Sequence record: MT932213.1
Reading direction: 5' to 3' (one strand)
Source of the DNA: Escherichia phage VEc74
Length of the DNA: 64,000 nucleotides
Below are positions 3,408-35,997 of this stretch, one piece after another. Every line of letters begins with the position of its first letter. The first letter of the stretch is position 1. The position numbers were made by a program, and so were the translations under genes. The notes beneath the pieces were generated by a model that worked only from the letters and a program-made list of their open reading frames with translations, ran no database searches and was not told the origin of the DNA.

Positions 3408-3693
3408 CAATCATATCCTCAATCTGCGATCTAGTAGTCTTCCAAAGAATACTAATGAGTTCATCATTATATGGCTGTTTTAGAATATCCCGACTTTTCT
3501 TGATAGCATATTCGTATTGAGCAAAATTATTGTTTTCAGCTGCAATTTGAGCGTGTTTATAAAGACGGTTCAGTTCGCGTTTGTTTTTAGACAATAACTT
3601 ATTTGCTTTTCTTTCTGCTTCAAGACGGTTCTTTTCTTCAATAGAAGAAATAAGCTTTTCCACTTCATCATTAATTTCGGGTTTATCAGTCAT
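3376..3693 (-). CDS. Hypothetical coiled-coil protein
   Basis: 105-aa ORF, charged/helical composition. Confidence 0.5.
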   Translation of the reverse strand: MTDKPEINDEVEKLISSIEEKNRLEAERKANKLLSKNKRELNRLYKHAQIAAENNNFAQYEYAIKKSRDILKQPYNDELISILWKTTRSQIEDMIDAYTRKIQAS

Positions 3694-3694
3694 A

Positions 3695-3913
3695 TTATTT
3701 CTCTAATATAAAATAAAAATCATCATCTGTTAAATGATACCGATAGTTTAATTCTACACCATTAGATTTAAAAGCGGTATCATACGGATTTTCTGGATCA
3801 ATATCAATGTCAAGAGCTAAAACTTCCCTGAGATACATTTTAAGTAAATAGGGAATAGCTTCAACTTCAGGTATTTCTTCCAAGAATCCGGAGAGGTTAA
3901 TCGTTAGCCTCAT
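3695..3913 (-). CDS. Hypothetical protein
   Basis: 72-aa ORF tightly packed downstream of gene 55. Confidence 0.45.
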
Positions 3914-4454
3914 ATAAAAAATCCAAACTAGGAGAATCGTCTACAACACTTTTCTTTTCAGCCCCTGGTGTTCTATAGGTTGATTCTTCGTAATGCGTCA
4001 TTTTATCGTAGATGTCTTGAATAAAAGTTTCATCTACTAACGCAACCATATCGTCGTCACGACTGTCATAGACATTGTGAACGAAGTAACTATATTTCTT
4101 TGCAACTTCCTTACGTTCTTTTTTAATACGTTGGACGAATGCATTAAAACAAGCTTGAGTTATATATGCATGTGGGTTTTTATATTTCGTTTCATCAAAA
4201 TTATGAAGTCCCTTAATAGAAGCTTCTATACCATCTGCAATCATTTCTTGTTTCCAAGACTGGGTGTATCCTGAAAAGTTGAAACGTTTAGATAAGCCTT
4301 CTGCAATAAGCATAATGGCTAATCCGATAGTATCATTCTGACGAACTACTTTATTTGGGTCTTTATTATTTGCTAATTCTGTTTTCCAATCAATAATAGC
4401 TTGTAAAAGCTCTTTATTGTTTACGTAATTATATTTAGGCTTAGTTTCTGGCAT
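3897..4454 (-). CDS. 55: Late-transcription sigma factor gp55
   Basis: [23 protein letters not shown]... matches T4 gp55; ORF-track start at 4460 is GTG, the ATG at 4454 with upstream GAGGTG SD gives 185 aa. Confidence 0.9.
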
Positions 4455-4534: not shown

Positions 4535-4804
4535 CTATCTAAGTAAACAGTATGCTTGGAATACTTTCTCCATCATCTTTTTAAATTCATGAATATCTAT
4601 ATAATGACTAGTTAAATCAGCATGATATAAAAAGTCTAAAAACTTTTCATGTGTGCTAACATATTCGCTTTCATTTAATTCAGAAACATGGCTTTCCCAA
4701 TATCCAACACCAGTCTTATTTGGGAAAAATGAAATTTTCATGTATTGGTCAACATAGAAAATGCCATAATTTTCAATAGTAATAGAAATATTAATAAATT
4801 TCAT
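4535..4804 (-). CDS. Hypothetical protein (55.x region)
   Basis: ORF track, co-oriented, start/stop coupling. Confidence 0.5.
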   Translation of the reverse strand: MKFINISITIENYGIFYVDQYMKISFFPNKTGVGYWESHVSELNESEYVSTHEKFLDFLYHADLTSHYIDIHEFKKMMEKVFQAYCLLR

Positions 4805-5016
4805 ACATTCATCAACTTAGCCGCTTCAAGAGCTGCATCTAGTGAATCAAATTGATCGACATATTCAATCAATTCGCCGTAATTAGCATATAACCACCAT
4901 TGGCTAAATTCATACTCAAGGATAAATCCATTTCCTTCAATTTGAGTTAAACCAATGCCATTTGTATTTACTTCATATCCGGCAAGACGCAAATCATTGA
5001 TAAGAGATTCATTCAT
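4801..5016 (-). CDS. Hypothetical protein (55.x region)
   Basis: ORF track. Confidence 0.5.
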   Translation of the reverse strand: MNESLINDLRLAGYEVNTNGIGLTQIEGNGFILEYEFSQWWLYANYGELIEYVDQFDSLDAALEAAKLMNV

Positions 5017-33654: not shown

Positions 33655-33688
33655 ATACCAAAAAGCCCCAACCTTTCGGTCGGGGCTA
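33655..33688 (-). terminator. Rho-independent terminator at the end of the tRNA/small-RNA transcription unit
   Basis: minus-strand GCCCCGACCGAAAGGUUGGGGC hairpin followed by UUUUUGG. Confidence 0.6.
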
Positions 33689-33699
33689 AGCCTTGCGGC

Positions 33700-34003
33700 A
33701 ACCTTGTCGGGGTTCCACCTGCTAAGGCAAGTGTTTGTACGAAACGCCGGGATTCGAACCCGGTTATTAAGTAGTTGACGCTACTCAATATTTTTAAAAG
33801 GCCATATCTCGACCATATCCGAACGTTCCGTCAAAAACGCTACTCGGCTTACGGCAAAGATATTTCCTCGAATCGATAATTCGGTGCGCCGTTTCTGCTG
33901 TGATATAAGGGGACATTAACAAAACATAAAGATTTATTAATGCCAGTCCTTAAACAGGGAACATCAGTCCGACGACTTGCCGGTAGCGACCCGGCTTCTT
34001 GTC
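33700..34003 (-). ncRNA. Small stable RNA region with tRNA-like elements (T4 rnaC/rnaD-like position); boundaries not resolved
   Basis: No ORF; contains a T-arm-like CCGGGTTCGAATCCCGG and an anticodon-arm-like hairpin without an acceptor stem; lies between tRNA-Arg and the terminator. Confidence 0.3.
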
Positions 34004-34079
34004 TGGTCGAGGCAGTAGGGATCGAACCTACGACCCAGGACTTAGAAGGTCCTTGCTCTTCCTTCTGAGCTATGCCTCG
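34004..34079 (-). tRNA. tRNA-Arg (anticodon UCU)
   Basis: Hand-folded cloverleaf: acceptor CGAGGCA/TGCCTCG, anticodon loop CUUCUAA, T-loop GGTTCGATCC, encoded CCA. Confidence 0.85.
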
Positions 34080-34083
34080 TATT

Positions 34084-34158
34084 TGGCGGACGTGATAGGA
34101 TTCGAACCTATAACCAATCGCTTAACAGGCGATCGCTCTGCCATTGAGCTACACATCC
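34084..34158 (-). tRNA. tRNA-Asn (anticodon GUU)
   Basis: Acceptor GGATGTG/CACGTCC, anticodon stem ATCGC/GCGAT with loop CUGUUAA, T-loop GGTTCGAATCC, CCA. Confidence 0.85.
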
Positions 34159-34162
34159 AAAT

Positions 34163-34249
34163 TGGTGGGGAGTGGTGGAGTCGAACCACCCGAGTCGCAA
34201 TGACAATGGATTTACAGTCCACACCGCTACCTCTACGGGATAACTCCCC
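34163..34249 (-). tRNA. tRNA-Tyr (anticodon GUA), long variable arm
   Basis: Acceptor GGGGAGT/ACTCCCC, anticodon loop CUGUAAA, long variable arm, T-loop GGTTCGACTCC, CCA. Confidence 0.8.
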
Positions 34250-34259
34250 CAAATTAATT

Positions 34260-34334
34260 TGGTGGCCCTGGGTGGAATTGAACCACCATCTGGCGATTAT
34301 GAGTCGCTTGCTTGAACCTTCCAGCTACAGGGCC
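34260..34334 (-). tRNA. tRNA-Ile (anticodon CAU, T4 tRNA-Ile type; tRNA-Met not excluded)
   Basis: Acceptor GGCCCTG/CAGGGCC, anticodon loop CUCAUAA, T-loop GGTTCAATTCC, CCA. Confidence 0.8.
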
Positions 34335-34335
34335 T

Positions 34336-34411
34336 TGGTGCTGATTGACGGAATCGAACCGCCGACCTTCTCATTACAAGTGAGTTGCTCTACCTACTAA
34401 GCTAAATCAGC
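34336..34411 (-). tRNA. tRNA-Thr (anticodon UGU)
   Basis: Acceptor GCTGATT/AATCAGC, anticodon loop CUUGUAA, T-loop GGTTCGATTCC, CCA. Confidence 0.85.
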
Positions 34412-34416
34412 AAAAC

Positions 34417-34506
34417 TGGCGGAGGCGATAGGATTTGAACCTATGAGTCGCCGGAGCGACTGCCGGTTTTCAAGACCGGTGCATTAAACCACTCTGCCAC
34501 GCCTCC
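34417..34506 (-). tRNA. tRNA-Ser (anticodon UGA), long variable arm
   Basis: Acceptor GGAGGCG/CGCCTCC, anticodon stem CCGGT/ACCGG with loop CUUGAAA, long variable arm, CCA. Confidence 0.85.
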
Positions 34507-34508
34507 AG

Positions 34509-34582
34509 TCTCCGCGGCAGGATTTGAACCTGCGACATTCTGCTCCCAAAGCAGACGCTCTACCAAACTGAGCTACACGGAG
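34509..34582 (-). tRNA. tRNA-Pro (anticodon UGG), CCA not encoded
   Basis: Acceptor CTCCGTG/CGCGGAG, anticodon loop UUUGGGA, T-loop GGTTCAAATCC; discriminator followed by CU then tRNA-Ser (2-nt spacer). Confidence 0.85.
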
Positions 34583-34592
34583 TAAATTAAAT

Positions 34593-34666
<74 letters not shown>

Positions 34667-34671
34667 AAATT

Positions 34672-34758
34672 TGGTGCGAGAAGTGGGACTCGAACCCACA
34701 AGGAAATCATTCCGCAGCATTTTAAGTGCTGTGCCTTTACCAATTTGGCCATTCTCGC
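34672..34758 (-). tRNA. tRNA-Leu (anticodon UAA), long variable arm
   Basis: Acceptor GCGAGAA/TTCTCGC, anticodon stem CAGCA/TGCTG with loop CUUAAAA, long variable arm, T-loop GGTTCGAGTCC, CCA. Confidence 0.85.
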
Positions 34759-34764
34759 GCTATA

Positions 34765-35397
34765 TTATTTATTACGTGAAAAAGACTGTTCTATCAATTC
34801 TGGACACTTTCGTTCTATCCATTTTCTAGCTTTTTGTGGGCTTATACCTATTATTTTAGCAGCTTTACTAACCCATCCAAATTTAGAATAATCGATTTTA
34901 ACTAATTCTTCGTAAATTTCATCAGTTAAAATCTTTTCATTAATATTTACCAGTAAATGATATAATTTATTATCATTAGCAATTTTAATGAATCTTTTAT
35001 AGTTTCCGCCTTTACTTAAGCCTAATGAAGTAATTGCAGATGATATAGTAGCCGAATTTAATAGTGCGTTTAAAATTTCTTCATCACTAACATTATAACG
35101 CTTTTTATTATTTTTAATATTTTTACCAGCAAAAGTATCAGTTTGCGAATGGCAGTTTGGACATAATAATCTTAAATTTGATTTAAGATGATTTTTGTTA
35201 TTTCCATCAATATGGTCTAATTGCAGAACAATATGCTTATTTTGCCATTTTGAAATTTTACAAATTGCACACTCATATGGAAAAATATTTTCTTTTATTA
35301 TTTTGTCTTTCAGCTTTCCTGTACTAAAATTTGGATGTTTTCCTTCAAAAATTTCAGCTAATTTAGTATCCATAATATGATTCCCAATTATTAACAA
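34765..35397 (-). CDS. HNH homing-endonuclease-like protein (free-standing)
   Basis: HNH signature CAIC...LQLDHIDGNNKNH...NLRLLCPNCH plus C-terminal HTH-like region; stop 6 nt upstream of tRNA-Leu. Confidence 0.7.
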   Translation of the reverse strand: MLIIGNHIMDTKLAEIFEGKHPNFSTGKLKDKIIKENIFPYECAICKISKWQNKHIVLQLDHIDGNNKNHLKSNLRLLCPNCHSQTDTFAGKNIKNNKKRYNVSDEEILNALLNSATISSAITSLGLSKGGNYKRFIKIANDNKLYHLLVNINEKILTDEIYEELVKIDYSKFGWVSKAAKIIGISPQKARKWIERKCPELIEQSFSRNK

Positions 35398-35472
35398 AGG
35401 CTCTCAAATAAGAACCCTTGATGATAGAGGGTATTAATCAGTGCGGTATGAGTTAATAATAACAAATAATTC

Positions 35473-35997
35473 TTAAAGCAAATTAAACATTTTAACGGTC
35501 GGCAAAACAATTTCTTCTTCTATATAAGAGTATTTAACACTCTCAACTACACGCAAAAAATCATAATCATAATACTCAGAAGCATTACCTAAAATATTAG
35601 TAAGTCCTTCAAGCACTTTATTACCATTCACAAAGAATAAGTCAAATACACGTTCTTCGTCTTCTTCGGATTTATTACCAAGGTCAACTTCTATGTCAAA
35701 GACCTTTTTAATGAATTCTGGATAAAGTTGTTCTGAGAACAGTCCTTCAACCAAGTATTCATAAATAAAAAGCGATTGCTCGCTGAACAAGCCATTACCA
35801 CAATAACGTTCAGCTTTAGTACTAGAATGTCTGCTTTTAAACTTCTTTAAAAGATATTGGAACTGTAAGATTTCATGCTCTTCTACGCCAAACAGTGTTT
35901 TAGTTTTATAATTGTCACCATCATTTTCCCAGGTAGTGACATCAATTACGTAACCCTGCGGAATTGTAGTACCTAAACAAATATTCATTTTCACCAC
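35473..35997 (-). CDS. Hypothetical protein
   Basis: ORF track, 174 aa. Confidence 0.5.
   Translation of the reverse strand: MVKMNICLGTTIPQGYVIDVTTWENDGDNYKTKTLFGVEEHEILQFQYLLKKFKSRHSSTKAERYCGNGLFSEQSLFIYEYLVEGLFSEQLYPEFIKKVFDIEVDLGNKSEEDEERVFDLFFVNGNKVLEGLTNILGNASEYYDYDFLRVVESVKYSYIEEEIVLPTVKMFNLL

Follow-up and report, generated by a model that had tools for sequence, protein, structure and literature searches.

The 64,000-nucleotide stretch of Escherichia phage VEc74 analyzed here (sequence record MT932213.1; hereafter, the window) is that of a Tequatrovirus (T4-like) phage, and the 2.4 kb surrounding the locus under study are 97–98% identical to phages teqhad and phiD1. At this locus, a minus-strand open reading frame (ORF; 34765..35397) with an HNH nuclease motif stands at the head of a tRNA cluster, immediately before tRNA-Leu. 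By DNA, 988 phage records match this region. An earlier reading made from the letters alone (hereafter, the sequence-only reading) had noted that tRNA-Gln would be expected at this site and is missing. Both halves of that remark held: T4, T2, T6, RB3, RB68, and ASO78A have a tRNA-Gln that heads the cluster, one nucleotide before tRNA-Leu, and the gene is present in 448 phage records overall, and in the 64 kb no tRNA-Gln was found by ARAGORN or by blastn with T4 tRNA-Gln. Rfam and ARAGORN likewise revealed no hidden or degenerate tRNA-Gln in the window.

The HNH gene and its predicted protein

The ORF listing gives 210 amino acids from a TTG codon, and the translation contains YECAICK...LDHIDGNNKNH...NLRLLCPNCH. 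The sequence-only reading, which had described a 210-amino-acid ORF with a complete HNH motif, was thus right about the motif, whereas the length needs correction. TTG 35397 is the mechanical maximum of the open frame, and the true start is probably ATG 35373 (35371-35373), giving 202 amino acids. This start is favored because the read-through from TTG covers intergenic sequence that is also found in phages without the HNH gene, and because a 609-nt coding sequence (CDS) is annotated from the ATG in teqhad, CM8, and phiD1 and homologues align from residue 1. The sole Shine-Dalgarno-like element of the gene is a weak GGA 8 nt before the ATG, within a remnant of tRNA-Gln described below. At the other end, the stop codon (34765-34767) is separated from the start of tRNA-Leu (34758) by 6 nt (TATAGC), the same distance that had been read from the sequence earlier.

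The ORF is not a chance open frame, since its protein matches PHROG 14736 ("HNH endonuclease") over the full length (E = 5e-124) and has 5510 database homologues, and since 15 codons vary only synonymously among ten phages that carry the gene, with two codons changing the amino acid. A sequence search of the PDB with the protein returned nothing meaningful, and no HNH paralogue was found within the 64-kb window. GenBank labels on the Tequatrovirus gene are "HNH endonuclease," "HNH homing endonuclease," and, in some records, "F-TflIV." A packaging-type HNH protein (HK97-like) was considered and rejected, as a terminase is not nearby and most relatives lack the gene.

In an alignment of 32 homologues, C35, C38, W43, H54, G57, N66, L67, C71, P72, N73, C74, H75, and T78 are invariant, and from their positions they are the predicted HNH catalytic residues and four-cysteine zinc site. 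The residues diagnostic of a His-Me finger nuclease, H54 (in LDHID), N66, and H75 (in CPNCH), are thus unchanged, and the core has the marks of a beta-beta-alpha-metal fold and of a structural zinc site (CxxC...CxxC). In an AlphaFold model (pLDDT 89.2, pTM 0.51), the nuclease core consists of a beta-hairpin and helix and is followed by two helical modules (residues 97-134 and 151-199). The helix-turn-helix (HTH)-like tail remarked on in the sequence-only reading reappears in Pfam HTH matches at residues 164-192, which are weak and all sub-threshold, in model helices at 167-175 and 179-189, and in a GWV...PQK motif that is invariant among homologues. The GWVSKAAKIIGISPQKARKWI motif is also conserved and aligns with the C terminus of T5 F-TflIV. 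The predicted architecture is therefore an N-terminal HNH nuclease joined to C-terminal helical and HTH DNA-binding modules, as in free-standing homing endonucleases, and no intron or intein surrounds the ORF, which stands alone and, at a single locus, is carried by some close relatives and lacking in others.

A cassette in place of the tRNA-Gln interior

Alignment of the flanks with other T-even tRNA regions, which the sequence-only reading had proposed as a way of finding an insertion or deletion boundary, located that boundary to the base. A 616-nt cassette replaces tRNA-Gln nucleotides 10-71, precisely and identically in every carrier, and leaves short tRNA-Gln remnants on both sides (Table 1). 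The cassette is promoter-less. From a fixed anchor in the leader to tRNA-Leu, the distance was 704 nt in all ten fetched carriers and 147–150 nt in eight HNH-less loci, these being the HNH-less loci in which tRNA-Leu was found. Position 8 of the 5' remnant, corresponding to U8 of the tRNA, is changed from T to C here and in six of the ten carriers and is T in every HNH-less phage compared. U8 is universally conserved in tRNAs, and the change is what would be expected of a stub freed from constraint.

Table 1. Features of the HNH locus and the tRNA operon of VEc74 (positions in the window)
Feature	Position	Strand	Basis or remark
HNH endonuclease CDS, 202 aa + stop (probable start)	34765..35373	-	PHROG match, annotation in relatives, homologue alignment, codon variation
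Cassette, 616 nt: TATT + CDS + TAT	34762-35377	-	Absent from HNH-less phages; alignment with ASO78A, teqhad, CM8
tRNA-Gln 5' remnant TGGGAATCA, nt 1-9	35378-35386	-	Alignment; same sequence in leader + these nine bases
tRNA-Gln 3' remnant AG (nt 72-73) + 1-nt spacer C before tRNA-Leu	34759..34761	-	Alignment
Nuclease core, residues 35-75: C35xxC38, H54, N66, C71xxC74-H75	35149..35271	-	HNH beta-beta-alpha-metal motif + four-cysteine zinc site (predicted)
C-terminal HTH, residues 161-192 (DYSKFGWVSKAAKIIGISPQKARKWIERKCPE), presumed DNA-recognition module	34798..34893	-	Pfam, model, conservation
Candidate T4-type middle promoter	35456..35482	-	MotA box TTTGCTTTA 35474-35482, 12-nt spacer, -10 TATTAT 35456-35461
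Leader hairpin AAGGGTTCT-TATTT-GAGAGCCTT	35397..35419	-	Conserved with and without HNH; ASO78A annotates terminator
Nine tRNA genes of one transcription unit, in order of transcription: Leu, Gly, Pro, Ser, Thr, Met/Ile(CAT), Tyr, Asn, Arg	34004..34758	-	ARAGORN; T2-type cluster without Gln
rnaD	33883-34002	-	99% identical to RB3
rnaC	33738-33876	-	99% identical to T4
Strong intrinsic terminator, end of transcription unit (33664..34002)	33664-33687	-	After rnaC

The distribution of the gene was surveyed in the GenBank phage collection. A query across both junctions was aligned in one piece in each of 63 records, and an empty-site query found an intact tRNA-Gln–tRNA-Leu site in 448 records. HNH-positive records matched the empty-site query only at positions 1-47 and 110-141, and this query detected no intact tRNA-Gln elsewhere in them. 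The gene is thus present in ~12% of records, at one fixed site. All 63 Tequatrovirus carriers share the same junctions and lack tRNA-Gln, and none of them has the gene at this site beside a retained tRNA-Gln, the arrangement that would have spoken against the earlier suggestion that the insertion accounts for the missing tRNA; with a base-precise replacement, that suggestion stands. Across the 63 records, protein identity is at least 98.5%, and the frame is full-length in all ten carriers examined.

Carriers span several ICTV species (including teqhad, deeone, cm8, lutter, gee4507, and snuabm) and several cluster layouts: T2-type, with tRNA-His, with T4-type segB, with a SegB-like gene at the tRNA-Pro position, with an extra ORF replacing tRNA-Thr, and with or without a 174-amino-acid ORF upstream. 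The gene is also present or absent among near-identical phages. A scan of IMG/VR with the HNH protein gave no relatives, and a scan with the upstream 174-amino-acid ORF gave 10 loci only.

The excess of synonymous-only over replacement codons (15 versus 2) indicates that the HNH gene is under purifying selection. Mean pairwise divergence among the same ten carriers is 0.75% for the HNH gene versus 4.6% for trna.2, 2.7% for trna.4, and 2.3% for 57B, so its diversity is three to six times below that of the flanking genes; in 41 of 45 pairs, it is lower than every flank gene. Phages teqhad and O157kw have identical HNH genes and differ by 6.7% in trna.2. This low divergence relative to the flanks indicates that the cassette is younger than the genes around it and has passed from one diverged genome to another. 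There are two cassette haplotypes, each found with both upstream layouts. Together, the codon variation, low diversity, and varied genomic backgrounds fit a functional, laterally spreading gene, and the comparison points the same way as the sequence-only reading, which had taken the gene for a possible mobile element distinct from that of T4.

The tRNA-Gln genes of HNH-less Tequatroviruses (T4: locus L020, 3459-3531) fall into two alleles whose only differences, all fully compensatory, lie in the anticodon stem and loop: TAGCA-CTTTGAC-TGCTA in T4, T2, and T6 and CTGGA-TTTTGAT-TCCAG in RB3, RB68, and Pinarejo. Identity bands of the empty-site query suggest roughly 190 versus 320 records, respectively, and a third stem is found in an uncultured T4-like contig (L014). 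The split possibly reflects evasion of tRNA-cleaving defenses or of a nuclease target site. Phage Sf25 (locus L021, about 2939-2960; compare 34740-35386 here) has neither the HNH gene nor tRNA-Gln. In this phage, an 80-nt deletion joins tRNA-Gln nucleotides 1-17 to the tRNA-Leu D-arm at a GG microhomology, and the acceptor stem of the resulting chimeric tRNA cannot pair; the junction could be a break-repair scar or an assembly artifact.

Known relatives and setting in the tRNA operon

Among characterized proteins, the closest homologue of the HNH protein is T5 F-TflIV (hegA), a site-specific HNH endonuclease, with 35% identity over 170 residues (BLASTP, E = 2e-22). The BLASTP alignment covers the HNH core and the C-terminal HTH, and the tblastn alignment covers 84% of the query. 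Both proteins have a CxxC...DH...N...CPNCH core and a C-terminal SK(F/Y)(G/S)W...K..G(I/L)S helix-turn-helix, and F-TflIV is also free-standing within a tRNA cluster, that of T5, 23 nt after tRNA-Ile2. It differs in belonging to Demerecviridae, in having ~55 extra N-terminal residues and a central linker that is not alignable, and in lying between genes, where no tRNA is replaced.

The T4 tRNA cluster carries SegB, a GIY-YIG enzyme that recognizes tRNA-gene sequence and drives preferential inheritance of the region (PMC2330249); it cleaves the DNA of tRNA genes, and in T4 × T2L crosses its inheritance is close to 100%. Like the HNH gene, segB lies in this operon, free-standing among tRNA genes, abuts the next tRNA, and is served by the middle promoter of the cluster. 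It differs in its GIY-YIG catalytic domain and in its position in the cluster, and BLASTP detected no similarity between the HNH protein and T4 SegB. The statement in the sequence-only reading that the homing endonuclease of the T4 tRNA region is of a different family was therefore correct.

The T4 proteins MobA to MobE are free-standing HNH enzymes without promoters of their own that nick their targets and are over-inherited in crosses. The HNH gene resembles mob genes in being a free-standing, promoter-less HNH gene of T-even phages. Mob C termini are described as of the zinc-finger type versus the HTH of the HNH protein, and mob genes lie between protein-coding genes. With the HNH protein, tblastn at E ≤ 1e-5 gave 238 records, mostly the 63 carriers and non-T4 phages. 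This number is far below the 988 records matching the region, and these record counts suggest, indirectly, that the HNH protein is probably not a recognizable relative of the products of mob genes. HNH homing endonucleases of the I-HmuI type (HNH_3, NUMOD) also combine an N-terminal HNH domain with C-terminal helical and HTH modules, and their homing is initiated by a nickase; HNH enzymes of related kinds often nick rather than cut. A full-text literature search found no paper describing the HNH gene or the replacement of tRNA-Gln. The gene is already annotated in GenBank and is probably a new, uncharacterized addition to the free-standing HNH homing endonucleases.

More distant homologues were found in other T4-like phages. 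The L014 contig encodes a 68%-identical HNH protein 14 nt after an intact tRNA-Gln, with a strong Shine-Dalgarno sequence. In L015 and L016, 58%-identical homologues stand at the head of tRNA clusters, with no tRNA-Gln in the fetched locus, and carry TAATTGGAA before the ATG, reminiscent of TAATTGGGAAT at the HNH gene of VEc74. By sequence comparison, members of this HNH family go with tRNA clusters in several lineages of T4-like phages and, in L014 and the Tequatrovirus carriers, with the position of tRNA-Gln. Downstream of the L014 homologue lies a 400-nt stretch (4604-5009) in which no ORF or tRNA was called and for which Rfam and ARAGORN found no tRNA. It starts with GCGAGACCAAGCTGGTAA, like the 5' end of tRNA-Leu (unconfirmed), and may be a degraded tRNA or a structured RNA.

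In VEc74, the HNH gene lies between the candidate promoter and the tRNA genes, rnaD, rnaC, and terminator (Table 1) and would therefore come first in the precursor transcript of the tRNAs and stable RNAs. The MotA box of the candidate promoter overlaps the stop codon of the upstream ORF; phage Lutter has a promoter annotated at the equivalent place, and the T4 literature describes a middle promoter just upstream of the tRNA cluster. No Rfam family was found for rnaC or rnaD. The upstream ORF (174 amino acids; 35473-35997, minus strand; PHROG 2290, function unknown) separates the trna.2 homologue from the tRNA promoter. Among relatives, teqhad, CM8, phiD1, Killian, ASO78A, T2, and Sf25 have this ORF and T4, T6, RB3, RB68, Lutter, and L14 lack it, and the junction between the two states falls ~20 nt before its stop codon, at the start of the MotA-box promoter. 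In the D-arm of tRNA-Leu (nucleotide 14, position 34745), VEc74 has C versus T in most relatives (GAATGGCC versus GAATGGTC). This change is not linked to the HNH gene, because it is common to L14 (HNH-positive) and Pinarejo (HNH-less).

Other tRNA positions in the operon are occupied by ORFs in some relatives. A 202-amino-acid SegB-like GIY-YIG gene takes the place of tRNA-Pro (34508-34582 here) in O157kw (L019, 3447-4055), CM8 (L003, 1934-2542), and RB68 (L023, 3225-3833), in phages with and without the HNH gene. It leaves a degenerate 5' piece of tRNA-Pro, and like the HNH gene, it replaces one tRNA and stops 6 nt before the next, tRNA-Ser. The last ~24 residues of its product (HTH) resemble the HTH of the HNH protein (50% identity, E = 2e-4). 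ORFs of PHROG 16521 (function unknown), of 160 and 133 amino acids, stand at the tRNA-Thr position (34336-34411 here) in Lutter (L018, 3624-4106) and T2 (L022, 3479-3880). Phage pSe_SNUABM_01 (L030) has an ORF annotated at 3624-4106, the same coordinates as in Lutter; PHROG membership was established from Lutter and T2 only. PHROG 16521 also matches the SegB-like protein (E = 1e-12) and, more weakly, the HNH protein (E = 2e-4), in both cases in the C-terminal part, and BLASTP detected no homology between the HNH protein and the 160-amino-acid ORF of Lutter. These matches suggest that the PHROG 16521 ORFs may be nuclease-less remnants or a shared DNA-binding module.

Proposed homing, rival explanations, and significance

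Free-standing homing endonucleases are a hallmark of T-even phages. We consider it probable, at roughly 65%, that the ORF encodes a homing endonuclease of the free-standing HNH (His-Me finger) kind and is carried as a cassette in place of the tRNA-Gln interior at the head of the T-even tRNA operon. The MotA-dependent middle promoter would drive transcription of the gene, as the leading cistron of the tRNA precursor, and the weak Shine-Dalgarno sequence made of the 5' tRNA-Gln remnant would serve its translation. RNase P, cutting at the 5' end of tRNA-Leu, would generate the 3' end of its mRNA 6 nt past the stop codon; a like arrangement, with the cut close behind the stop, has been discussed as a brake on SegB expression. 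During mixed infection, the protein would use its C-terminal HTH modules to bind DNA and would nick or cut at tRNA-Gln, or close by, in the HNH-less allele, and T4 recombination-dependent repair would copy the cassette from the carrier, converting a tRNA-Gln-positive genome to an HNH-positive, tRNA-Gln-negative one. The carrier would be immune, its target segment (tRNA-Gln nucleotides 10-71) being gone. The missing tRNA-Gln interior is the only consistent difference between filled and empty sites within ~170 nt on each side, and if loss of the target is what spares the carrier genome, then the recognition site must overlap nucleotides 10-71. tRNA-Gln is nonessential.

Several points weigh against this interpretation. 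The activity of the protein, both cleavage and homing, is inferred from sequence. Its PF01844 (Pfam HNH) score of 17.3 bits is under the gathering cut-off of 21.4, although many homologues carry PF01844, and Foldseek returned no significant full-length match for the model. The intact tRNA-Gln beside the L014 homologue indicates that destruction of the target is not universal in this HNH family, and the TAATTGGAA sequences of L015 and L016 mean that the 9-nt "remnant" could partly belong to the cassette. No carrier-specific flank haplotype or co-conversion tract was found in the flanks, which consist of tRNA genes and a short conserved leader; co-conversion tracts, if any, would be short or erased. 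A pairing of the leader over the stub and Shine-Dalgarno sequence was predicted with an energy no better than that of shuffled sequences (z = -0.59) and was given no weight. Finally, free recombination among T-even phages could likewise spread a neutral cassette.

This last point leads to the rival explanation that best survives, although we regard it as unlikely: a single entry of the cassette followed by shuffling through ordinary T-even recombination, with the protein kept for a benefit to the phage and not for homing. The benefit might lie in degrading or excluding competitor or host DNA or in amplifying tRNA loci, as reported for SegB. The flanks, with no carrier-specific haplotype and with both cassette haplotypes in both upstream layouts, agree with such shuffling, and purifying selection would be expected under any useful function. 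An adaptive side-effect is documented for SegB of this cluster (tRNA-Tyr amplification against Septu), and bioinformatics alone cannot tell homing from domesticated nucleases. In contrast, a gene found at one fixed site in ~12% of records, with a tRNA displaced, has the classic pattern of a selfish element. The identity of the HNH genes of teqhad and O157kw beside a neighboring gene that differs by 6.7% requires a transfer that was both very recent and very local, for which a nuclease-induced break is the best explanation, and the nuclease-plus-HTH architecture and homology to F-TflIV are typical of site-specific homing enzymes.

Rather improbable is an account in which the loss of tRNA-Gln and the arrival of the HNH gene were separate events, so that insertion as such did not remove the tRNA. 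By one route, the gene would have been inserted downstream of an intact tRNA-Gln, as in L014, with a later deletion of nucleotides 10-73; by another, a pre-existing tRNA-Gln deletion would have been filled later. L014, with its intact tRNA-Gln 14 nt upstream of the homologue, offers a model for the first route, but it shares no flanking DNA with the HNH-cassette junctions of VEc74. The microhomology deletion of Sf25, which fuses Gln to Leu, indicates that HNH-independent deletions reach tRNA-Gln, but its breakpoints differ, and no allele lacking both tRNA-Gln and the HNH gene was seen with the junctions found here. Moreover, none of the 63 Tequatrovirus carriers keeps tRNA-Gln beside the HNH gene, and the junctions are identical in all.

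A last reading, in which the ORF would be what is left of a homing endonuclease gene, inactive and decaying and kept only because its deletion is neutral, is very hard to credit: T4 has many defunct homing endonuclease genes (such as I-TevIII), and this gene has a weak Shine-Dalgarno sequence and no promoter of its own, but its frame and protein are conserved as described above, replacement codons are few, and all catalytic residues and zinc ligands are intact.

A broader proposal, possible but tentative, is that the enzyme recognizes the tRNA-Gln gene, homes by replacing it, and is one case of a wider pattern in T-even operons in which cassettes overwrite their target tRNA. The HNH gene would have overwritten tRNA-Gln, the SegB-like gene tRNA-Pro, and the PHROG 16521 ORFs tRNA-Thr, each leaving a short 5' tRNA stub and ending a few nucleotides before the next tRNA. 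From their sequences, an exchangeable C-terminal HTH module appears to be common to these cassettes, regardless of nuclease family. If this proposal is true, selfish nucleases continually reshape the phage tRNA repertoire, which is now known as an anti-defense arsenal, and the two compensatory anticodon-stem alleles of tRNA-Gln could be cleavage-resistant or defense-evading.

The locus is an unusually clean case, in which every part of the event can be read to the base, the cost is explicit (the carrier genome loses its only tRNA-Gln[UUG]), and hundreds of natural "empty" and "filled" alleles exist. The HNH protein would be a second, unrelated nuclease family in the T-even tRNA cluster, where SegB is the only characterized one. 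Interest in this cluster has grown of late, because phage tRNAs counter tRNA-cleaving bacterial defenses and SegB has been shown to amplify tRNA loci. If the HNH enzyme cuts tRNA-Gln DNA, this locus would provide a system for studying the trade-off between a selfish nuclease and an anti-defense tRNA, and how HNH and GIY-YIG enzymes share DNA-binding modules.

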